A DNA stretch of 64,000 nt from Alphaproteobacteria bacterium (lineage in GTDB: Bacteria; Pseudomonadota; Alphaproteobacteria; UBA9655), in NCBI GenBank assembly GCA_019746105.1, contig JAIESK010000023.1:8982-72981 (forward strand), given 5' to 3'. The number at the start of each line of letters is the position of its first letter. Position 1 is the first letter of the stretch. Both the position numbers and the translations under genes were made by a program. This document shows positions 1,713-42,647 of the stretch, piece after piece. The notes beneath the pieces were generated by a model. It searched no databases. It worked only from the letters and a program-made list of their open reading frames with translations, and was not told where the DNA came from.

Positions 1713-3290
1713 TCAAGCGGTTTTAAGATATCTCACATCAGTTTTAAGCTCCTCTAGAACTCCTGTCGATGATATTTGATATCGCCGCCCTTCACGAGGA
1801 CAAATTAAATCATCTCCAAGTTTTTCACCTGCATGACTGACCCATCCGATTTGCTTAGCTGGATTCCCCGCCATAACGGCATGAGGTTTTACTTCTTTTG
1901 TAACCACAGCCCCAGCACCAATTAAGCTATATGCCCCTAAGCGATTTCCACAAATAATCGTTGCATTCGCTCCAATAGTAACGCCACGTTCAACATGGGT
2001 TGGCCGAAATTCGTCTTTACGTTCAATTTCCGCCCGAGGATTGTGGACATTTGTAAAGACACATGAAGGACCACAGAAAACTCCATCTTCCAAAACAACC
2101 CCTTTATAAAGACTTACATTATTTTGAATCTTACAACGATTGCCGATAATAACATCTGGACCTATCATAACGTTTTGCCCAATGATGCAATCTTCCCCAA
2201 TTCGCGTCCCTTTAATAATATGAGAAAAGTGCCAAATTTTTGTTCCTTTACCGATGTCACAACCACCATCAACCTGTGCCGTATCATGAGTAAAATAGCT
2301 TGAGATTGTGGGTGTCAAGGGAACACTTGCCAATGAGTGCAATGACTGTTGCGCGGCATCCAAAACTTGTAAAACTTGCAGTCCTTCAATGCCATCTGTC
2401 TTTGGATTTTCATTTTTTTCAATACAGTCAAGGAAATGTTGACATTCTAATTTTAAAGGCTCTGAAACCTCTAAAGGAATATTGACTACATCTGCTTTTG
2501 AAGCTTGTGGTAGTCCATCAACCCAGGTCACCTGATGAGGGTAAAGCTTTAACTTTTCACCCCACGGCAATCCATCATCAAAAACCGCCATACCACGATC
2601 TCCCACAACCACAAGTTTTTGTTCTTTAAAGGGATGGAGCCAAGATACAAAAACATGAGCCTGAATACCATTTTTAAATGTCAAATGAGTTGTCGTAACA
2701 TCGTGAATATGCGGGTTCAAATGACAAGCTCCCGTTGCATAGACAGTTTCTGGCAATTCTCGAGCAAGCCCCAAAATCATAGAAATATCATGAGGAGCAA
2801 AACTCCACAAAATATTTTCTTCATTACGAAACTTGCCCAAATTTAAACGGTTGGAATAAATATACTGAAGACGACCAAGGTTTCCTTTAGATATAAGATT
2901 TTTTAATTCTATAAAAGCTGAGTGATACTGCAATATATGCCCTACCATCAACTTACGATTCTCTTTTACGGCAAGCTCACAGAGCTTCTTTGCTTCCTCT
3001 ACCTTTAAGGAAATAGGCTTTTCTACATAAACATGTTTCCCAGCTTTGAGAGCTTTTTTGGCAAGGTCATAATGTTGAACAGCAGGGGCAGCAATAACAA
3101 CCCCATCTACATCACTTTGAAGAACCTCTTGTAAACTAAGAGCTGGAACATTGTAGGTTTGAGAAGAAGTTTTTGCTAATTCAGAATTAGCATCACAAAT
3201 AGAAGCAAGAGCTCCAAGTTCGGCAAAATTACGAACAAGGTTTTTTCCCCAGTAGCCACAGCCGATGACAGAAACTCTAATGTTACTCAT
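1713..3290 (-). CDS. fusion protein: Gfo/Idh/MocA-type sugar-nucleotide oxidoreductase (N-terminal) plus left-handed beta-helix N-acetyltransferase (C-terminal), WbpB/WbpD-like
   Basis: 525 aa. N-terminal Rossmann motif is VIGCGYWGKN, with a typical Gfo/Idh/MocA length of about 330 aa. The C-terminal ~180 aa shows hexapeptide-repeat periodicity (IGEDCIIGQNVMIGPDVIIGNRCKIQNNVSLY ... IGANATIICGNRLGAYSLIGAGAVVTKEV..GNPAKQIGW). ATG at 3288-3290. Confidence 0.8.
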   Translation of the reverse strand: MSNIRVSVIGCGYWGKNLVRNFAELGALASICDANSELAKTSSQTYNVPALSLQEVLQSDVDGVVIAAPAVQHYDLAKKALKAGKHVYVEKPISLKVEEAKKLCELAVKENRKLMVGHILQYHSAFIELKNLISKGNLGRLQYIYSNRLNLGKFRNEENILWSFAPHDISMILGLARELPETVYATGACHLNPHIHDVTTTHLTFKNGIQAHVFVSWLHPFKEQKLVVVGDRGMAVFDDGLPWGEKLKLYPHQVTWVDGLPQASKADVVNIPLEVSEPLKLECQHFLDCIEKNENPKTDGIEGLQVLQVLDAAQQSLHSLASVPLTPTISSYFTHDTAQVDGGCDIGKGTKIWHFSHIIKGTRIGEDCIIGQNVMIGPDVIIGNRCKIQNNVSLYKGVVLEDGVFCGPSCVFTNVHNPRAEIERKDEFRPTHVERGVTIGANATIICGNRLGAYSLIGAGAVVTKEVKPHAVMAGNPAKQIGWVSHAGEKLGDDLICPREGRRYQISSTGVLEELKTDVRYLKTA

Positions 3291-3352
3291 AAATATTTCC
3301 CTTTCTTTTTTGAAATCTATAACATGGAAGCTGTAAACAATTTAACTTAATT

Positions 3353-31546: not shown

Positions 31547-31735
31547 GTGCTGCCTCAGTCCCTTGAAATTTCTTTTTTTATTTACGTGCTTACAGTATGC
31601 CAGAAAAAGACCCACTCACCAAAGTTTTTCATCATCTATGATTTCTGCAGATGGTTTTCTCTTTAATGCACGACATCTCCCTCGCGACATTCAAGAAGTC
31701 ACTTATAAAAAAAAACTTCATTCCCTTTACGCTTG

Positions 31736-33448
31736 CTAACAGCTCACATTATATTGATTAACGTATGGTTTTACAGTAACAAAATGCTTCTCAAGAGTTA
31801 TAATTTGATCGACCTTATGAGCAAGGTATGGGCGATGAGTGATAATGATCTTTGTTGCATGAGGGAGAAATTTTTCAATGTTATTTTGAATGATAAAATC
31901 CGTGTCTTTATCTAAAGATGAAGTACTTTCATCAAAAATACAAATTTTAGGCTTTTTAAGAAAAAGACGCGCAAGAGAAAGCCGTTGTTTTTCCCCTCCC
32001 GATAATTTTAAACCTCTATCCCCCACAATTGTGTTAAGACCCTGAGGTAGTTTGTTTATGAAATCAAGAAGGTGTGCTCTATCTAAGGCCTCCTCGATTT
32101 CCTGAAGAGTAGCTTCAGGAAGTACAAACTGAACGTTATTCTTAATTGTATCATTCAATAAGTAACTTTCTTGAGGAACCCACCCTATTGTCTCATATAG
32201 AGACTCTAAGGAAAACTGCTTTATGTCTGTCTGGTTAATAAAAACCTGACCTTCTGTAGGGTCATATAACCTCAGAAGTAACTTTGCTATGGTAGACTTT
32301 CCGACCCCTGTCGATCCCATAATCAGGGCAGTTTCACCCGCTTCTATTTTAAAAGAAATATTTTCCAAGATATTTCTGTCATTATACTTAAAAGATACAT
32401 TGTCAAAATGTATTTGAAAATGAGAGCCTGATAAAACACGAGGCTGAGAAGCCTCGATGATCTCACTTGTTGTTAACAACAGATCGAGAATCCCTTTCAT
32501 ATCAATAAGGGCTTTTTTAATGTCGTGTGTGAGTTGACCTAAGATGCTAATAGGGATAATAAATTGTAAAATATACCCATTAAATAAGATAAAATCTCCA
32601 ATGGTTAAAGATCCTTTCAAAACGTCTTGGCCAATAAGATAGATAAGAGAAGAAAGCCCAAATCCTAAAATTAAAGATTGCCCCACATGGATTAGACTAT
32701 ATTTCGTCATAAATGTAACTTCAACGGTTTCTCGTTTTTTTAACTCCCTTTCGCAAGTACGGACTGCTAACTCACGTTTACCAAAAACTTTAATCGCCTG
32801 ATAATTTGAAAGCCAATCTGTGACAATACCGTCAACGCTTCTATCAACCTCGTTGGCTTCTTCACGATCTTTTAGGACCGCTCTAATGGAGAGGGAGGTA
32901 TAAATAAAAAATGATCCCAAGATCCCTATCATGAGGAAGCTATAGACAAAGGGATAAAGACTAGAGATCAAAATAATAACAAATAGAAGTTCAAATACAG
33001 TTGGGAGAACATGAAAAAATACTCCAAGGATAATACTTGGTACATCTTGCTGTGCTCTTCTTATAATGTTCGTTAAAGCTCCTGGTTTTTGATTAAGGAA
33101 ATAGCTGTGAGAAAGGCTATAAAGATGAGACAGAACCTTTATTCCTAAAATAAAGGTAATACGTTGTTCAATTTTATAGGTTAGCAGCCCTCGCACATGA
33201 AGAGAGGCTTGGCTGATCATCCAAATCAATCCGTAGCTTAACAAAATCAATGTGATGGATAGTGAGCTTTGTAAAGAAAAAGAGTCTACGATCTTTTTGA
33301 GAAGAAGAGGAATAGATAAATTTGAGAGAATTCCAATACTTAATCCTACAAGAGAGAAGAAAAAGCTCCAACGAATTTTTTTGTCCTCAAATGTACTAGA
33401 AAGAATTTTTTTAATGCACCGTCCATATGCCTGATAGTTTGAACCCAT
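31736..33448 (-). CDS. half-size ABC exporter (TMD-NBD), McjD-like putative lasso-peptide export/immunity pump
   Basis: 570 aa. Six predicted TM helices, then Walker A GSTGVGKST, signature LSGGEKQRLSLAR, Walker B ICIFDESTSSLD and H-loop ITHR. Starts 7 nt after the cyclase stop. Confidence 0.7.
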   Translation of the reverse strand: MGSNYQAYGRCIKKILSSTFEDKKIRWSFFFSLVGLSIGILSNLSIPLLLKKIVDSFSLQSSLSITLILLSYGLIWMISQASLHVRGLLTYKIEQRITFILGIKVLSHLYSLSHSYFLNQKPGALTNIIRRAQQDVPSIILGVFFHVLPTVFELLFVIILISSLYPFVYSFLMIGILGSFFIYTSLSIRAVLKDREEANEVDRSVDGIVTDWLSNYQAIKVFGKRELAVRTCERELKKRETVEVTFMTKYSLIHVGQSLILGFGLSSLIYLIGQDVLKGSLTIGDFILFNGYILQFIIPISILGQLTHDIKKALIDMKGILDLLLTTSEIIEASQPRVLSGSHFQIHFDNVSFKYNDRNILENISFKIEAGETALIMGSTGVGKSTIAKLLLRLYDPTEGQVFINQTDIKQFSLESLYETIGWVPQESYLLNDTIKNNVQFVLPEATLQEIEEALDRAHLLDFINKLPQGLNTIVGDRGLKLSGGEKQRLSLARLFLKKPKICIFDESTSSLDKDTDFIIQNNIEKFLPHATKIIITHRPYLAHKVDQIITLEKHFVTVKPYVNQYNVSC

Positions 33449-33455
33449 AAAGAAC

Positions 33456-35237
33456 TTAACTCCAATATTTTAAGTATATTTCAACCGATGCCAGATGCAT
33501 AAAAGGTATTATATCGCTAACATCTCCATTACTTATTAGTTTTATTGTATTACATAACCGTTCTTTATCAATAAGACCTTCTCTAGCAAATTTTCCTTCT
33601 AAACAGAGGTCATAAACGTAATCTAAGTTTTTCTTAATGCCTAATTGAAGGATTCCGGTCGTTTGGCTTTTATCTCGCCTCCACACGGTTTCCGTTTTAA
33701 AGTGATCACTCACAGCCTTGCGAAGAGGAAATCGATCAAATCCTTTATCGAAAAGATCATACGTAGGAAAAGACAAAGCAAATTCAACTACGGGTTCATA
33801 AAGAAATGGGTAATGAGTTGGATAAATTCGATCCATTTCCATATGTATAGATGATAACCCTTCATAAAGAAGGTCAATTTGATCATATTTCCCTGGAAGA
33901 ATTTCTTTTGGTAAGTCATCATATATGGGATGAACAAAATCAGAAGATATAATATGATGTATTTCTAGATTAAGCCATGAAGGTATTTCATCTTGTGTAT
34001 TTTTAGGATTTCTCTTTTCCAAACGTTGAGACAAAAAATACCTTCGAAGGTGTGTAACATTTTCTTTAAGAATCGAAAAAAATGGATCTCGATAAAAAGT
34101 TGTGAGTTTCTGTAACTGCTTCCTAGATCCTTTTAAACCTTTTTCAAGAATGTAATCTGTTAAAGATTTCTTTGAAGGGGGACACATGAAAACATGATCA
34201 CTACCGTGTCCGCTAATAAAAGAACAAGATCCCTTTGAGGGAAGATGTGCTGCTGTATTTTCAAATCCCCTTAAACTAATCAATCCTGAGAAAGGCTTAT
34301 TAGGGTTTATGAGTTGTTTTTTTTGACACTGGTCAAATGGAGGAGTGTTTGACATGTCAATTTCAATAAGTTCGATTCCTGTTTCCTGACATACTCTCTT
34401 CGCATGAAAAGTCTCATTTGATGATTTAAGAGCAGAATGAAAATAGTTGATAGCATTCAATGTTTGATTTTCTCTTTTAATATTTTTAAGACAATATACT
34501 AGCGCAGAAGAATCTAGTCCTCCAGAAAGACTTACACATATATTATCATAGGGTTCTATCCATGGTTTTAAGGTTGCCTGAAGCACCCCCACAGCGTCGC
34601 TCCTTTGATAAGCTGATGATTTATAAGAACTTAAAGGATTCCAAAAGGGTGTTGTTGCTTTTTCATTTTTATTTATTGTCAAACAACAGGCTGGAGGTAA
34701 CTCGTAAACATCCTTAAAGGGAGTATGAACGGCACTACTATTTCTAAAGATCAGGTAGGAATATAAATATTTCCAGTTGATCTCAGGCTTATAGTTAAGA
34801 ACTTTAAAAATAAATTCTATATCGGAAGAAAATAAAACATTTCCATTCGCAAGAATAAAATAAAAAAAAGGAAGTTGGCCAGATGAGTCAATAACAATTT
34901 CAAATTGAGATGTTTTTGGATTGTTACTTATAAATAGATATTTTCCCCAGATTTTATCTAGGATTTTTTCTTTATTAATGTAGGATAAAGTTTGAAAATC
35001 TTTCTTTTTAAGAGACGAGCTTTTTTCTTTATAAAAAACACGCCCCATTAAAATGTGAGAATCATTTTCCCAGATCTCATCCTTATCTTGAAGTTCTGAT
35101 AACTTTCCATAACAAAGTGTAAGAATGCCTTTCTTTAGAATAGTAGGAGAGTTTTTTGAGTAGGATGCAATTATAGAGGAAAGCAATTCAGACTTAATGG
35201 GTATATTGCTAAAATCAATAAACCCTATATATATCAT
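33456..35237 (-). CDS. asparagine-synthetase-like lasso peptide isopeptide-bond cyclase (C protein)
   Basis: 593 aa. PP-loop SLSGGLDSSALVY. The N-terminus MIYIGF lacks the Cys2 glutaminase nucleophile of true AsnB. ATGA overlap with the B gene. Confidence 0.8.
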   Translation of the reverse strand: MIYIGFIDFSNIPIKSELLSSIIASYSKNSPTILKKGILTLCYGKLSELQDKDEIWENDSHILMGRVFYKEKSSSLKKKDFQTLSYINKEKILDKIWGKYLFISNNPKTSQFEIVIDSSGQLPFFYFILANGNVLFSSDIEFIFKVLNYKPEINWKYLYSYLIFRNSSAVHTPFKDVYELPPACCLTINKNEKATTPFWNPLSSYKSSAYQRSDAVGVLQATLKPWIEPYDNICVSLSGGLDSSALVYCLKNIKRENQTLNAINYFHSALKSSNETFHAKRVCQETGIELIEIDMSNTPPFDQCQKKQLINPNKPFSGLISLRGFENTAAHLPSKGSCSFISGHGSDHVFMCPPSKKSLTDYILEKGLKGSRKQLQKLTTFYRDPFFSILKENVTHLRRYFLSQRLEKRNPKNTQDEIPSWLNLEIHHIISSDFVHPIYDDLPKEILPGKYDQIDLLYEGLSSIHMEMDRIYPTHYPFLYEPVVEFALSFPTYDLFDKGFDRFPLRKAVSDHFKTETVWRRDKSQTTGILQLGIKKNLDYVYDLCLEGKFAREGLIDKERLCNTIKLISNGDVSDIIPFMHLASVEIYLKYWS

Positions 35238-35857
35238 ATCTTTAACTTTCTAAAAGGCTCATTTAAAATAATACTTAGTCCTCTTCTTAAGTCTTGTGAA
35301 TCCATGATAACTAAGCCATTGCATTCTACCCAGGCATGAGCAAAGAAAGGATAATTCTGCACTCCTATTTCAATATTGCATTTCCACTTTCGTTTTAGAG
35401 CTAATAAAACATATGTGATAGCCCACTCTAAACACTTTGTTCTTTTTGGATATAAAAGACATGCCTTATTAACTATATTAGCAAGGTCTGCCAATTCTTT
35501 CTCCGAAGGAATGGTATATCTTACTTGAAACTTTCGAGTTCTTTTTATTAAATTAATTACAGGATAGAATCCCGCAAATTTTGTATAAAAATTAACTTTT
35601 AGAAGTGTCACAAGAGCTTTTATTACGAAAACATTCAAAGAAATGTTTTTATTTTCTAAAGGTAGATTCCAATCCACATTTGCAACCCCCTCAGAGTTAG
35701 GTTTTTGGTCAATATAGAAAGAAAAAGGAGTATCTTTTTCTTCAATAAGGTTAGCTTTAATAAGTTGTTGGATATTTTCATTGTAATTTGTAAGATATGA
35801 GAAATCCACAAAGGAATCAACATTTTCAGATTTTGATTTCTTATCTATTGTCAACAA
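35234..35857 (-). CDS. lasso peptide leader peptidase (transglutaminase-like B protein, fused McjB-type)
   Basis: 207 aa (McjB is ~208). Cys/His/Asp arrangement is KRTKCLEWAITY ... FFAHAWVECNG ... LVIMDSQD. The only available start is TTG at 35857, and an ATG lies 18 nt upstream in frame but is separated by a TGA. Confidence 0.75.
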   Translation of the reverse strand: MLTIDKKSKSENVDSFVDFSYLTNYNENIQQLIKANLIEEKDTPFSFYIDQKPNSEGVANVDWNLPLENKNISLNVFVIKALVTLLKVNFYTKFAGFYPVINLIKRTRKFQVRYTIPSEKELADLANIVNKACLLYPKRTKCLEWAITYVLLALKRKWKCNIEIGVQNYPFFAHAWVECNGLVIMDSQDLRRGLSIILNEPFRKLKI

Positions 35858-35918
35858 TTTTCACAATTTTTTCATCTCGAATTTTGAAGGCTAATTAAGG
35901 ATAATAAATATCAATATT

Positions 35919-37742
35919 CTAATAACAATTCAATGTTTCCATGTGCTTATCAATCCACTTAATACTCCGTTCAAGAGCATCACGTTGGTTTTTTGGATGT
36001 TCAAATATATGACCTTCATCAAGATATTGGATATATTCGGTTTCAACACCTTGTGCTTTGATATAATCATACAATGTCTTGACTGAATTATAAGCATCCA
36101 CTCCTCCTAATTCTGGATTTCCCATAAGAAATAAAGTGGGTGTCCTTACTCCCTTCCATCGTAAAAAAGTGTTCCCTGAAACTTTTTGAAATAATTTTAG
36201 TTCTTCAAGCCATCCTTCTTTAGAGACTATTGCTCGAAATCGATGGGTCATGCTAAGAAGTCGATTTACTCGCCTTCCTCCAGCACTATGACCAATGATT
36301 GCTATACGATTAGGATCAATAACTTCTTGATTAGCGAGGAAATCAATCCCGGCCTCTATATCTCTAATGTCACAGTTTATTATTTCATTTTCTGATATGC
36401 CATCCCAATTAATCTCACGAGAACCAAAAGAAGCAGATGAACGGAACTCGGGTATAAAAACAGCATAGCCTCTAGCTGCCCACATATGCCATTCGAGAGG
36501 TGAGTTAACTAGAATTCCACCCATTAAATAAATACTGGCACCTTCTCCTCCCCCATGAATATCCACAACAAGAGGATAAGAAATTTCTTTTTGATAGTCT
36601 AAGGGCATCACTAAGAGACCATATAAATTTGTTGGATAGTCCGGAGTGCGCCATTCAATCTCACGTACTTCACTGAGGGCCATATCTTGTGGAACGGCGG
36701 GGATACAAATTTGTTCATTTATGTTATCTTCTGTGCTTGAAGCAACTCCTATAATTTTGTTACTATGAGCATCTTGTCCAGTCCAAGCTATGAGCTCCCC
36801 ATCTGGAGAAATGGAATAACTTTCTATATTTAGGGGTGCATTTGTTATTTGCTTTAATTTTCTTGTATCCGTATCAATTTTATAAATCTGTTTATAAGCA
36901 CCATAACTTCTCAGAAAGTAAATAAATCGTCCATCAGGAGACCACTGAGGAGAAAACACTTTCATTTCATGGGTCAAGCGCTCAATTGGTTGCAAAATAT
37001 CCTTCTTCTTGGATGTATAGTTTACAACACAAAGACTTGGCATAAAGTTAAATTGCGGGTTATCTACATCAGATGTATATGCAATGAAGTTTCCATCAGA
37101 AGACAAAACAGGCGAAAGATATTGCTGCAATCCTGCAAACTCAGCAACAATATGTATTTGTCCATTATGAATGTTTAAGGATTGAATCCAAGTATAATTA
37201 TCCTCTTCCTTGAAAAAAAAACCTATACGCTCTTTCATAAAAAGAAGTTCTTCTCCATTTTGAAACCAAGAGAGGAAGCGGATGTTTTCCTGAATCGAAG
37301 CTACTTCTCGAAATTTTCCTGTCATTACATCAATAACATTTATTTTACTTTGGGGGGGGACTCTTTTTTCCCAATAAGCAAAGGGGGAACGATATATGAG
37401 AGCTATTTGCTTTGAATCAGGGGACCAAGTAAACTCAAAAGAAAAGAAAAATCCCTCCCCCAGCCCCTCAGAAAAAAAAGTCAACTGCTTTAAATTCTTT
37501 CCTTCCTTATCCATTAACCAAAGTTGTTTTTCTTCCTTTTTTCCACGAACAAAGACCATCCATTGTCCATTAGGAGAAGGGGTGGGATAAGTTCCTTCTC
37601 CTAATAATTTAGGCTTTTTCGTGAGAAGATCACATATTTGTATGGTCCATTTTTGTTTATTTCCAATAGGCGGAAAATCGTAAAGAATAGTCTTGTTGTT
37701 TAACCACTTTATGGATAAAGAACCCCATTTCTTTTTAGACAT
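35919..37742 (-). CDS. S9-family serine peptidase with N-terminal PD40/TolB-like beta-propeller, candidate lasso-peptide isopeptidase
   Basis: Propeller repeats are SPNGQWMVFV, WSPDSKQIALI, SSDGNFIAYT, WSPDGRFIYFL and ISPDGELIAWT. The catalytic triad is intact: GHSAGG, GGVD and EGHIF. ATG at 37740-37742 preferred. The track start (TTG at 37835) adds a Pro/Ser-rich 31-aa extension. No signal peptide seen. Confidence 0.7.
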   Translation of the reverse strand: MSKKKWGSLSIKWLNNKTILYDFPPIGNKQKWTIQICDLLTKKPKLLGEGTYPTPSPNGQWMVFVRGKKEEKQLWLMDKEGKNLKQLTFFSEGLGEGFFFSFEFTWSPDSKQIALIYRSPFAYWEKRVPPQSKINVIDVMTGKFREVASIQENIRFLSWFQNGEELLFMKERIGFFFKEEDNYTWIQSLNIHNGQIHIVAEFAGLQQYLSPVLSSDGNFIAYTSDVDNPQFNFMPSLCVVNYTSKKKDILQPIERLTHEMKVFSPQWSPDGRFIYFLRSYGAYKQIYKIDTDTRKLKQITNAPLNIESYSISPDGELIAWTGQDAHSNKIIGVASSTEDNINEQICIPAVPQDMALSEVREIEWRTPDYPTNLYGLLVMPLDYQKEISYPLVVDIHGGGEGASIYLMGGILVNSPLEWHMWAARGYAVFIPEFRSSASFGSREINWDGISENEIINCDIRDIEAGIDFLANQEVIDPNRIAIIGHSAGGRRVNRLLSMTHRFRAIVSKEGWLEELKLFQKVSGNTFLRWKGVRTPTLFLMGNPELGGVDAYNSVKTLYDYIKAQGVETEYIQYLDEGHIFEHPKNQRDALERSIKWIDKHMETLNCY

Positions 37743-37936
37743 GTTAAGAAGCCAATTAGTTGTTATAACCCTCGTTCCAGAACGTGAAGGAAGAGGGGAA
37801 GTTAGAGGTTGCTCCGGCGGGGAGGAAAATTTCAATGTTATGACCTTAAAGAAGGAAATTATATTATACTAAATAATACATAAGAATTTGTTGTAAGGCA
37901 ATTTAAAAGATACACAAGTTTTTCATCAGGTCAGAA

Positions 37937-40865: not shown

Positions 40866-42647
40866 ATGAATTTTACAAATCTTTTTTCTGACAAAGCTAG
40901 CATTTCTCTTGTAAGCCGCTTATGGAGGGAGCATATCAAACCCTACCATTGGTATATCTGGGGTGGACTTTTATGCATGGCTATTGCTGCACTAACAACA
41001 GCAAGCCTTGCCAAAATGCTCCAACCTCTTTTTGATGATGTTTTTGTTGCCAAAAATGAGGGGATGCTCTTTCAGGTTGCTTTACTTGTCTTAGGAATAT
41101 TTATCTTAAAAGGACTTTCTAGCTTTGGAGAATCGGTCAGCTTAATTTATGTAGGGCAAAAGATTATTGGTGATATCCAAAAACGACTTTTTGACCATTT
41201 TATTGATGCTGACTTAGCTTATTTTCATGCACGCTCAAGTGGAGGACTTGTTTCACGGGTCATTAATGATGTTAATTTAATGCGCAATGCAGTAACGACT
41301 GCTTTAACAGGAATTGGGAAGGATACGCTTTCCCTTCTCTTTCTAATTGTATTGATGTTTTATCAAGATTGGCTTTTAGCATCTTTGGCTTTCTTTGTTT
41401 TTCCTGTTGCTCTTCTTCCTATTGTGAAGATTGGTAAAAAAATGCGTAAAGTTTCCTCCAATACACAAGAAGAGATGGGTATCTTTACAATCCTTCTTCA
41501 TCAAGTGTTTCAAGGGATGCGGATCGTTAAATCCTACGCCATGGAGACTTATGAAAAAAAACGTGCCCATCATCTTATTAATGCCTTAAGTCGCCTCAAT
41601 ATAAAAGGAGGGCGCGTCAGAGCCGCTTCCCATCCCATTATGGAAACTTTGGGCGGTATTGCTATTGTTATCGTTATTCTTTACGGAGGATCACAAGTTA
41701 TTGCAGGCAACCGGACTACCGGAACTTTTATCTCTTTCATTACCGCACTTTTGTTAGCTTACGAGCCTTTAAAGCGTCTTGCCAACTTAAATGCCAATTT
41801 ACAAGAAGGACTGGCTGCAGCCGTACGTGTTTTCAATGCTATTGATTTAAAGCCAAGCATTGTTGACCTTCCAGGAGCTTTTCCTCTTCACATACATAAA
41901 GGAAAAATTTCCCTTAAGTCCGTTGATTTTTCATACTCTCGTGGAAAAAAAGCTCTTAGTACAGTTTCCTTAGAAGTTCCCGCAGGAAAGCGTATTGCTC
42001 TTGTTGGGCCTAGTGGCTCCGGGAAATCAACCCTTTTAAACCTTATTTCTCGCTTTTATGAAGTCACCTGTGGAACCATTTCAATCGATGATGTGGATAT
42101 TCAAAAAGTTACATTAGAGTCTCTTCGCTCACAAATCTCTCTTGTAAGCCAAGAAGTCATTTTATTTGATGATACGATAAGAGCCAATATTGCCTATGGC
42201 CGTTGGGATGCCTCCGAAGATGATATTATAAAAGCTGCAAAGGCAGCAGCAGCTCACGAGTTTATCCTGCAACTTCCTGAAGGATATGATACTTTTGTTG
42301 GGGAGCAAGGCATACGTCTTTCAGGAGGACAACGACAACGCCTTTCCATTGCTCGTGCTATGTTAAAAAATGCGCCTATCCTTCTTTTGGACGAAGCCAC
42401 CTCTTCCCTTGATACTGAATCAGAACGTCAAGTTCAAACTGCCTTAAATCGTCTTATGGAGGGCCGGACAACTGTCGTTGTTGCTCATCGCCTTTCAACG
42501 GTTATGGATGCAGATAAAATTTATGTTATTGAGCAGGGAAGTGTAACTGAGGAAGGAACCCATCAAGAACTTCTTAAAAATAAGAAAACTTACGCGCGAC
42601 TCGTCGATCTTCAGTTTTCATCCGATGCTATTCCATTGGCTTCTTAA
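40866..42647 (+). CDS. msbA: lipid A export ATP-binding/permease protein
   Basis: 593 aa TMD-NBD. Motifs GPSGSGKST, LSGGQRQRLSIARA and LLLDEATSSLD. Heads a Kdo/lipid A gene string. Confidence 0.8.
   Translation: MNFTNLFSDKASISLVSRLWREHIKPYHWYIWGGLLCMAIAALTTASLAKMLQPLFDDVFVAKNEGMLFQVALLVLGIFILKGLSSFGESVSLIYVGQKIIGDIQKRLFDHFIDADLAYFHARSSGGLVSRVINDVNLMRNAVTTALTGIGKDTLSLLFLIVLMFYQDWLLASLAFFVFPVALLPIVKIGKKMRKVSSNTQEEMGIFTILLHQVFQGMRIVKSYAMETYEKKRAHHLINALSRLNIKGGRVRAASHPIMETLGGIAIVIVILYGGSQVIAGNRTTGTFISFITALLLAYEPLKRLANLNANLQEGLAAAVRVFNAIDLKPSIVDLPGAFPLHIHKGKISLKSVDFSYSRGKKALSTVSLEVPAGKRIALVGPSGSGKSTLLNLISRFYEVTCGTISIDDVDIQKVTLESLRSQISLVSQEVILFDDTIRANIAYGRWDASEDDIIKAAKAAAAHEFILQLPEGYDTFVGEQGIRLSGGQRQRLSIARAMLKNAPILLLDEATSSLDTESERQVQTALNRLMEGRTTVVVAHRLSTVMDADKIYVIEQGSVTEEGTHQELLKNKKTYARLVDLQFSSDAIPLAS

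Follow-up and report, generated by a model that had tools for sequence, protein, structure and literature searches.

The 64,000-nucleotide (nt) stretch analyzed here (the window; part of contig JAIESK010000023.1) comes from a metagenome-assembled genome (MAG) labeled Alphaproteobacteria bacterium (locus tag K2Y08_01705) and carries four closely packed minus-strand genes that resemble the machinery for lasso peptides, a class of peptides that are ribosomally synthesized and posttranslationally modified (RiPPs). They encode an S9 peptidase (hereafter E), a transglutaminase-like protein (B), an asparagine synthetase-like protein (C), and an ATP-binding cassette (ABC) half-transporter (D), and the same sequence is found in the 92-kb Logan contig SRR19610018_50690 (Table 1). 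A gap of 61 nt separates the peptidase gene from B and one of 7 nt separates C from D, and the B stop and C start overlap as ATGA at 35234 to 35237. An earlier note on this DNA, made from the sequence alone, had described this four-gene arrangement with its gaps and overlap, and every coordinate was confirmed; the motifs that it listed were likewise located, namely, KRTKCLEWAITY, FFAHAWVECNG, and LVIMDSQD in B and SLSGGLDSS in C. The gene caller of the public assembly places the start of B at GTG 35809, giving a product of 191 amino acids (aa) instead of 207 aa. Upstream of the cluster lie genes for ComF-like, FolD, YggT, and RsmE proteins, and downstream lie those for isovaleryl-CoA dehydrogenase and methylcrotonyl-CoA carboxylase, so that both flanks bear out the housekeeping surroundings that had been described. 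The GC content is 30 to 36% in the cluster versus 39 to 45% in the flanks, and judging from this compositional difference, the low-GC cluster among housekeeping genes fits a horizontally acquired island.

The window B passes both the NF033537 lasso_biosyn_B2 model (89.5 bits; cutoff, 33) and Pfam Transglut_core3 (PF13471; 84 bits; cutoff, 26) and keeps the invariant Cys, His, and Asp (C187, H219, and D231 in the numbering of protein P0121), in agreement with its original description as a lasso-type B with a Cys/His/Asp layout. C scores 68 bits against Asn_synthase (PF00733; cutoff, 21), and its best NCBIfam match is the NF033535 lasso cyclase at 91 bits, below the cutoff of 525 of that narrow model. 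It contains the intact PP-loop, lacks the Cys2 nucleophile, and begins with residues of which I2, Y3, and G5 are invariant in the family; in our alignment of C proteins (A1), 95 or more invariant columns are common to the window copy, and all of the PP-loop residues are kept. A glutamine-dependent asparagine synthetase was rejected as an identity for C on account of the missing Cys2 and a score of 80.8 bits against TIGR01536 AsnB, below the cutoff of 267, and a PDB sequence search with C gave no match. The earlier proposal of a Cys2-less, AsnB-like lasso cyclase starting with MIYIG thus holds, with the lasso cyclase model as its best NCBIfam match and the cutoff of that model missed. The same is true of the proposal that B-C-D constitutes lasso machinery, given that B passes NF033537 and that relatives of the cluster carry canonical precursors (see below).

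D consists of the Pfam domains ABC_membrane and ABC_tran. It is 56 to 86% identical to the D proteins of most related alphaproteobacterial clusters and of the Amoebophilus cluster, always encoded after C, and only 36 to 39% identical to those of chlamydial and Verrucomicrobia-labeled loci. Its best PDB matches are transporters of the Atm1, ABCB1, and ABCB7 types (E = 1e-90 to 1e-72), and McjD was not found among its 60 best PDB matches; what had been called McjD-like is therefore, by sequence, a generic Atm1/ABCB-type half-transporter, whose putative link to lasso export comes solely from its conserved position after C. The window encodes a second, MsbA-like ABC half-transporter of 593 aa (40866 to 42647). 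DUF374, KdtA-like, and LpxK genes come next in the source contig, and this transporter is a lipid A exporter of the housekeeping kind, distinct from the lasso D. ARAGORN found no tRNA genes in the window, and a promoter and terminator scan gave counts equal to those from shuffled sequence and was uninformative.

Table 1. Features of the peptidase-B-C-D cluster (positions in the window)
Feature	Coordinates	Strand	Remarks
S9 peptidase E	35919..37835	-	638 aa, TTG start
Spacer downstream of peptidase stop and deletion scar	35840..35918	-	from pairwise DNA alignment of the window with L094
Truncated lasso B	35234..35857	-	207 aa, TTG start
Lasso cyclase C, Asn synthetase-like	33456..35237	-	593 aa, starts MIYIG, full-length
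ABC half-transporter D, type IV exporter fold, putative lasso peptide exporter	31736..33448	-	570 aa

The missing precursor gene and N-terminal part of B

Related clusters were recovered by way of 190 detected homologs of C, the best 120 of which are 49 to 68% identical over their full length, and by a scan of one genome per species, which yielded 27 loci with C proteins 43 to 67% identical to that of the window (individual loci are referred to by L numbers). B, C, and D are adjacent in the same order in almost all related loci, more than 25 in number, and in nearly every one a precursor gene sits upstream of B, with small open reading frames (ORFs) in this position encoding more than 40 precursors with Thr at position -2, Gly1, and Glu8 or Glu9. 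Two leader classes are present in the family, one ending in ...YGV.LE.SASSLTQ and the other reading MYKKFL...AS..T., each followed directly by the first G of the core; Thr at -2 and Gly1 are common to the two classes, as is a Glu at core position 8 or 9. Many loci have three to seven precursor genes with hypervariable cores (Gly1, often Gly4, Glu8/9, and Pro-rich tails), e.g., L011 (335 to 1127), L012 (9583 to 10329), L015 (5211 to 6112), and L093 (19465 to 20106), and L017 (3673 to 3831, 7112 to 7294, 9900 to 10721, and 12755 to 12988) combines both leader classes.

No such gene was recovered from the window. Three precursor hidden Markov models (HMMs) run over its six frames gave nothing credible (the best hit, with E = 0.12, was a leader-only fragment), and neither they nor regular expressions for the precursor motifs found anything in 9.4 kb more of this contig. 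When validated on loci that were not used in training, these models recovered four of four precursors in L093 (E = 1e-9 to 4e-5) and that of L094 (E = 4.5e-4), and they responded weakly (E = 0.18) to the much more divergent L087. Regular expressions for the leader and core motifs, applied to the six frames of the window, matched only inside long housekeeping ORFs. Small ORFs at 31632 to 31721 (minus strand, MKFFFISDF...), 31616 to 31690 (minus strand), and 37693 to 37872 (plus strand, containing GCSGGEE) were rejected as precursors because they overlap coding sequence, score with none of the HMMs, and have neither Thr at -2 nor the family leader. At 61, 7, ~100, and ~120 nt, the intergenic spaces around the window genes are too small for a precursor gene.

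The window B is incomplete at the same end. The N-terminal block of ~45 residues found in every homolog examined is missing from it, including the consensus MYYHLxDHIYITQFRDELILLDTKxDKYTICF, which all 25 loci and all 34 aligned homologs share, and a stop codon stands directly upstream. Almost all of the best 120 B homologs are 233 to 300 aa long, and the likeness of the 207-aa length given for B in the earlier note to that of McjB is coincidental, since members of this family have the greater length. In a close relative, the DNA that gave rise to codons 1 to 6 of the window B (L-T-I-D-K) lies between genes, and no Shine-Dalgarno-like motif was seen on direct reading before either TTG 35857 or GTG 35809.

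Because the Pfam PqqD profile was silent on full-length B proteins, even at E ≤ 10, we used structure, in the form of AlphaFold models and Foldseek searches, to assess whether the block belongs to a RiPP recognition element (RRE); a PDB sequence search with full-length B also gave no match. The model of a full-length relative B has a mean predicted local distance difference test score (pLDDT) of 69.6, rising to 75 to 81 over the N-terminal 50 residues, and displays four beta-strands (residues 5 to 35) followed by a helix (residues 37 to 48). Its six best PDB matches in Foldseek are all lasso RRE proteins with a leader peptide bound, i.e., TbiB1 (PDB codes 5V1V and 5V1U) and the B1 protein of 6JX3 (probability, 0.97 to 1.0; target-normalized template modeling [TM] score, 0.57 to 0.65), and other RiPP RRE proteins follow below them. 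As predicted from this model, what the window B has lost is the beta-sheet of its leader-binding RRE domain together with the first helix; it keeps the final RRE helix, the linker, and an intact B2-like leader-peptidase domain. A stand-alone B1/RRE was sought with tblastn by using four RRE N termini as queries, which matched only the part retained inside B, so that the 64-kb window has no complete RRE, whether fused to B or as a separate B1. In a characterized lasso system, the B2 protease does not cleave the precursor in the absence of B1/RRE (PMC5067487).

Comparison with a syntenic relative, L094, a 3.7-kb metagenome contig that shares FolD-ComF-peptidase synteny with the window and whose peptidase is 71% identical, accounts for both losses at once. 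Nucleotide identity between the two is 82 to 98% across FolD and ComF and into the 5' part of the peptidase gene, 63 to 84% in the middle of that gene, and 93 to 97% at its 3' end; the sequences then stay near-identical for ~90 nt past the peptidase stop, up to GACAATAGATAA (window 35852 to 35841), and homology stops at ~35841/35840. Beyond this breakpoint L094 continues with a precursor gene (3118 to 3318; leader MMSINILQMFTKAKSVRTQQKEADFSLGLDMPGGAQEITR, core GGAGMLLERPQPMTYIPGFELPRPPK) and, after ~250 nt more, with the start of a full-length B (3572; MPYHLSDHINIAQFRDEIILLDL...) preceded by a Shine-Dalgarno-like GAAGG, whereas the window runs straight from the junction into codons matching approximately residue 46 of full-length B. 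The missing segment amounts to ~0.65 kb, comprising ~516 nt of spacer and precursor gene plus ~135 nt of B, and we regard it as highly likely that a deletion of this size between the peptidase gene and mid-B is real. The peptidase does stand in the place of the precursor gene, as the earlier note had observed; the cluster is not simply headed by it, the precursor having been removed by the deletion.

The genes left behind show no additional damage. At columns otherwise invariant among 17 to 21 family members, the window copy has one private substitution in B, six in C, and one in D, compared with up to 3, 6, and 14, respectively, in intact clusters; these counts were used in place of the ratio of nonsynonymous to synonymous substitutions, since synonymous sites are saturated at 56 to 68% amino acid identity. 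By this measure, either the loss would be recent or the genes would still be under selection. Two smaller differences from L094 lie between window positions 35862 and 35935: a 2-nt indel that alters the C terminus of the window peptidase from ETN to ETLNCY and an 8-nt insertion (AATTGTGA) in a spacer that is otherwise identical. This ~75-nt perfectly conserved spacer may contain a regulatory element for the lost precursor gene.

The S9 peptidase beside the lasso genes

E combines the Pfam domains PD40 and Peptidase_S9 as a beta-propeller at the N terminus and an alpha/beta hydrolase at the C terminus. In our alignment of E proteins (A3), its active-site residues Ser517 (in GHSAGG) and His609 do not vary, and Asp580 hardly does. 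L087 and L094 also conserve an N-terminal extension, PEQPLTSPLPSRSGTRVITTNWLL, which makes the long peptidase ORF plausible. Peptidase and lasso genes occur together in three arrangements, each in a different genomic context: (i) E-(A)-B-C-D, where A is the precursor gene, in the window, L094, and L006; (ii) E-D convergent with A-B-C in L087, the C of which is only 36% identical to that of the window; and (iii) A(x4)-B-C-D-X convergent with E in L093. Since E stands beside so rare a gene set more often than expected by chance, a functional link to the lasso genes in these lineages is plausible.

The most specific form of such a link would be that E is a dedicated lasso isopeptidase of the AtxE2/SpI-IsoP type, making the locus one of the rare clusters with both D and E; among characterized systems, exporter and isopeptidase are combined only in rubrinodin (PMC9266682). 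We consider this rather unlikely. The NF033523 Atxe2 isopeptidase is indeed the best NCBIfam match of E, yet at 112 bits (E = 2.7e-32) it lies far below the cutoff of 400 and is nearly equaled by Dpp5 with 104 bits. Lasso isopeptidases, too, consist of a beta-propeller and an alpha/beta hydrolase domain (PMC9266682) and share the Ser/Asp/His triad of E, and the three lasso-adjacent arrangements also speak for this identity; the fold and triad, however, are common to all S9 peptidases. With an AlphaFold2 model of E (pLDDT, 88.9), Foldseek ranks the S9 carboxypeptidase 8WT1 first (TM score, 0.75) and the SpI-IsoP isopeptidase 13th (TM score, 0.63 to 0.68). Sequence and fold searches alike place S9 carboxypeptidases and acylaminoacyl peptidases ahead, and neither AtxE2 nor SpI-IsoP is among the PDB phmmer matches of E at E ≤ 0.001.

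Context points the same way. The family of E has at least 1,347 detected members, including Legionella and Tatlockia proteins, none of them named isopeptidase, and homologs 48 to 56% identical are found without nearby lasso genes in L090, L091, and L092, with that of L090 lying 940 kb from the lasso locus of the same genome. An ABC exporter adjacent to the L091 peptidase was rejected as a D, being only 28% identical to D and resembling the housekeeping MsbA-like gene, and L091 was counted as lasso-free. Known isopeptidase clusters encode a GntR protein, a TonB-dependent transporter, and a sigma/anti-sigma pair and usually no ABC exporter (PMC9266682); around the window cluster, L006, L087, and L093, by contrast, GntR, TonB-receptor, and sigma/anti-sigma genes are absent and an ABC exporter is present. 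Action of E on the peptide, isopeptidase-like or by trimming of the C-terminal tail, is thus something that it may perform, at odds that we put on the low side.

Two further observations concern the peptidase genes. That of the window (35919 to 37835) is a mosaic relative to that of L094 (1052 to 2974), with ends 88 to 98% identical and a propeller-encoding middle only 63 to 84% identical and interrupted by indels, a pattern that could reflect recombination or diversifying selection on a substrate-facing domain. A peptidase homolog in L088 (9926 to 11286) has lost ~195 internal residues and has no lasso genes in the 10 kb around it; this copy, too, appears to be in decay.

A probably inactivated cluster and its alternatives

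Taken together, these observations are best explained, with a probability of about three in four, by a recently inactivated lasso cluster that was horizontally acquired, was decapitated by deletion, and most likely makes no lasso peptide. From established lasso biochemistry, the intact relatives, with one to five precursors per locus, would be expected to work as follows. The precursor leader ends in ...AS-x-(L/I)-T-x and the core begins with Gly1 and has Glu at position 8 or 9; by analogy, the N-terminal RRE of B would bind the leader, the Cys-His-Asp domain of B would cut after the residue that follows Thr(-2), C would adenylate Glu8/9 and close the Gly1-Glu macrolactam around the tail, and D would export the product. 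In the window, the deletion took the precursor gene and ~45 B codons corresponding to the RRE beta-sheet and left E, a B2-like stump, C, and D, with the stump starting at a fortuitous TTG or GTG. With neither a substrate nor a means of recognizing leaders, the locus most likely produces no lasso peptide. That it yields no product by itself is very probable; that it is without any function at all is also probable, if somewhat less so than inactivation as such. What the earlier note singled out as the strongest candidate in the window for a natural-product system is accordingly a poor candidate for an active one, its precursor gene and RRE having been deleted. The oddity of the cluster has an ordinary cause, a deletion, and the window copy is a defective member of a known, biochemically uncharacterized family.

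Several points weigh against this interpretation. C, D, E, and the B protease domain are all intact, as continued selection would also leave them. The DNA searched is 73 kb of one MAG contig, and both a precursor and a full-length B could come in trans from a second locus. The Foldseek E values of the RRE match are weak (0.02 to 0.2), and the mean pLDDT of the model is only 69.6. The right-hand breakpoint derives from protein alignments and not from DNA, as the L094 contig covers only the first 100 nt of B, and the junction is known from metagenome assemblies of one sample and not from reads.

The alternative that draws most on these points is that the cluster is still in use, with the B stump, C, and D (with or without E) processing precursors from another locus and leader recognition being provided in trans; we judge this improbable. 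No decay is seen in the genes that are left, B keeps its catalytic Cys, His, and Asp, artificially split B proteins stay active in other lasso systems (PMC5067487), and genomes with several loci are common in the family, e.g., L023/L028 (Odyssella), L007/L015 (MAG 16-39-46), L010/L018/L031 (SMAG_U14073), and L012/L025. Nonetheless, a second locus would already own a complete B, C, and D, neither an RRE nor a precursor was found in the 73 kb, the new 5' end of B has no recognizable ribosome-binding site and its first codons were formerly intergenic, and a natural split at the same position occurs in none of the 120 best B homologs. Still more doubtful is the reading of the truncated locus as a trans-acting or RRE-independent module for precursors encoded elsewhere, in which the peptidase would perhaps take part in leader or tail processing as a new lasso-tailoring or -recycling enzyme specific to intracellular symbionts, the lasso peptides of which would act on the protist host.

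A deletion that is an assembly artifact or a collapsed minority variant, the true genome being E-A-B-C-D like L094, would be consistent with the sequence coming from a MAG and with the NCBI K2Y08 contig and the Logan contig SRR19610018_50690 probably deriving from the same reads. We find this quite implausible, since two assemblies from different pipelines agree, the junction is clean and maintains an ORF into B, and no collapse-prone repeat was seen at the breakpoint on reading the sequence. Finally, a non-RiPP pathway employing an asparagine synthetase homolog, a transglutaminase-like protein, an ABC exporter, and a peptidase, an idea to which the missed lasso-cyclase cutoff of C, its lack of a PDB sequence match, and the frequent annotation of its homologs as asparagine synthase lend some color, can be practically dismissed, given the full lasso-signature precursors upstream of B in nearly every relative, the passed lasso B2 model, the match of the full-length B N terminus to lasso RREs, and the absence of Cys2 from C.

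A family of symbiont lasso clusters

Sequence comparison makes it extremely likely that the defective window cluster belongs to the lasso family of amoeba symbionts typified by Aasi_0899-0902. In 2010, genes Aasi_0899-0902 of Candidatus Amoebophilus asiaticus were interpreted as a putative lasso peptide cluster (Schmitz-Esser et al. 2010); they are upregulated late in infection, homologs in Paracaedibacter and Odyssella had been noted by 2022 (Selberherr et al. 2022, PMC8831229), and the Amoebophilus cluster is flanked by insertion sequence elements (PMC3423634). The system that had been presented as uncharacterized is thus not an undescribed one, although no isolated product of any family member was found in the literature searched. 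The hosts of the 27 loci from the species-level scan include Holosporales and Paracaedibacteraceae MAGs, Candidatus Paracaedibacter symbiosus, Candidatus Odyssella thessalonicensis (two loci), Parachlamydiales, Rhabdochlamydiaceae, and bins labeled Verrucomicrobia, Gammaproteobacteria, and Patescibacteria; the C of Amoebophilus asiaticus (Bacteroidota), which was found by protein search and contig look-up, is 58% identical to that of the window. Outside the family, identity of C falls sharply, to 20 to 29% for the classical lasso cyclases of Sphingomonas, Asticcacaulis, and Hyphomonas. The family therefore crosses phyla, largely among lineages known as protist symbionts. Cross-phylum loci beyond the published hosts are L016, L019, L020, L021, L022, L026, and L030 (C at least 43% identical), and no host other than Amoebophilus, Paracaedibacter, and Odyssella is mentioned in the literature searched.

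Other genes recur in these loci. At least 11 loci have a large GerE(LuxR)-NB-ARC-TPR regulator of the STAND type next to their lasso genes (e.g., L004, 3152 to 6511; L005, 3028 to 6489; L087, 13868 to 17356; L093, 21303 to the contig end; and seven further loci), and none is present in the window. A protein of 974 to 990 aa with no confident Pfam domain (one weak AAA match) is encoded after D in at least 10 loci (L004, 11554 to 14526; L093, 12260 to 15184; and also L007, L014, L015, L017, L024, L025, L027, L030, and L032); its gene, a conserved accessory of the lasso loci, has no counterpart in the window. In L093 (2560 to 9802), an intact E-associated cluster adjoins a tyrosine integrase and a TraG/type IV secretion system coupling protein, which suggests that it is carried on an integrative or conjugative element.

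The window cluster shares with the Amoebophilus (L002), Paracaedibacter (L013), and Odyssella (L023) loci the B-C-D order, the setting in a low-GC island, and a host lineage with an intracellular lifestyle; its products are 54 to 66% identical to theirs (B/C/D, 62/58/66%, 62/59/64%, and 62/54/62%, respectively). Unlike the window, those loci have one or two precursor genes, a full-length B of 234 to 252 aa, and no S9 peptidase, and those of Paracaedibacter and Odyssella have a divergent GerE-NB-ARC-TPR regulator that the window lacks. Clusters of the microcin J25 and capistruin type resemble the intact relatives in their fused B, Cys2-less C, ABC exporter, Thr at -2, and Gly1-Glu8/9 ring, and they differ in that the C of the present family is only 20 to 29% identical and fails NF033535 and that D is not specifically McjD-like; the window copy in addition lacks A and the RRE. 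The astexin and sphingopyxin clusters (AtxE2 and SpI-IsoP) likewise have an S9 propeller/hydrolase peptidase beside lasso genes, but the window E is far below the isopeptidase cutoff, is nearer to S9 carboxypeptidases, and comes with an ABC exporter and without the GntR/TonB/sigma context, and its family also occurs away from lasso genes. With respect to split-B systems (PadeB1/B2, TbiB1/B2, and the B1 of 6JX3), the window B roughly equals a B2-only protein; those systems, however, encode B1 next to B2, whereas the window has no B1 and its stump arose by deletion in a fused B.

Lasso peptides of obligate intracellular symbionts are an unexplained curiosity, and the target of the Amoebophilus cluster could be the host or a competitor. 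Having lost its substrate gene and leader-binding domain, the window copy adds little on this question. As an inactivated cluster, it is a clean and datable case of how a reduced genome dismantles a RiPP cluster. The family to which it belongs is much wider than reported, reaching Parachlamydiales, Rhabdochlamydiaceae, and many Holosporales-like MAGs, and in one sublineage it brings an S9 peptidase together with an exporter. For finding its product, the intact relatives (the L094 or L006 type, L093, and L087) are the better targets.

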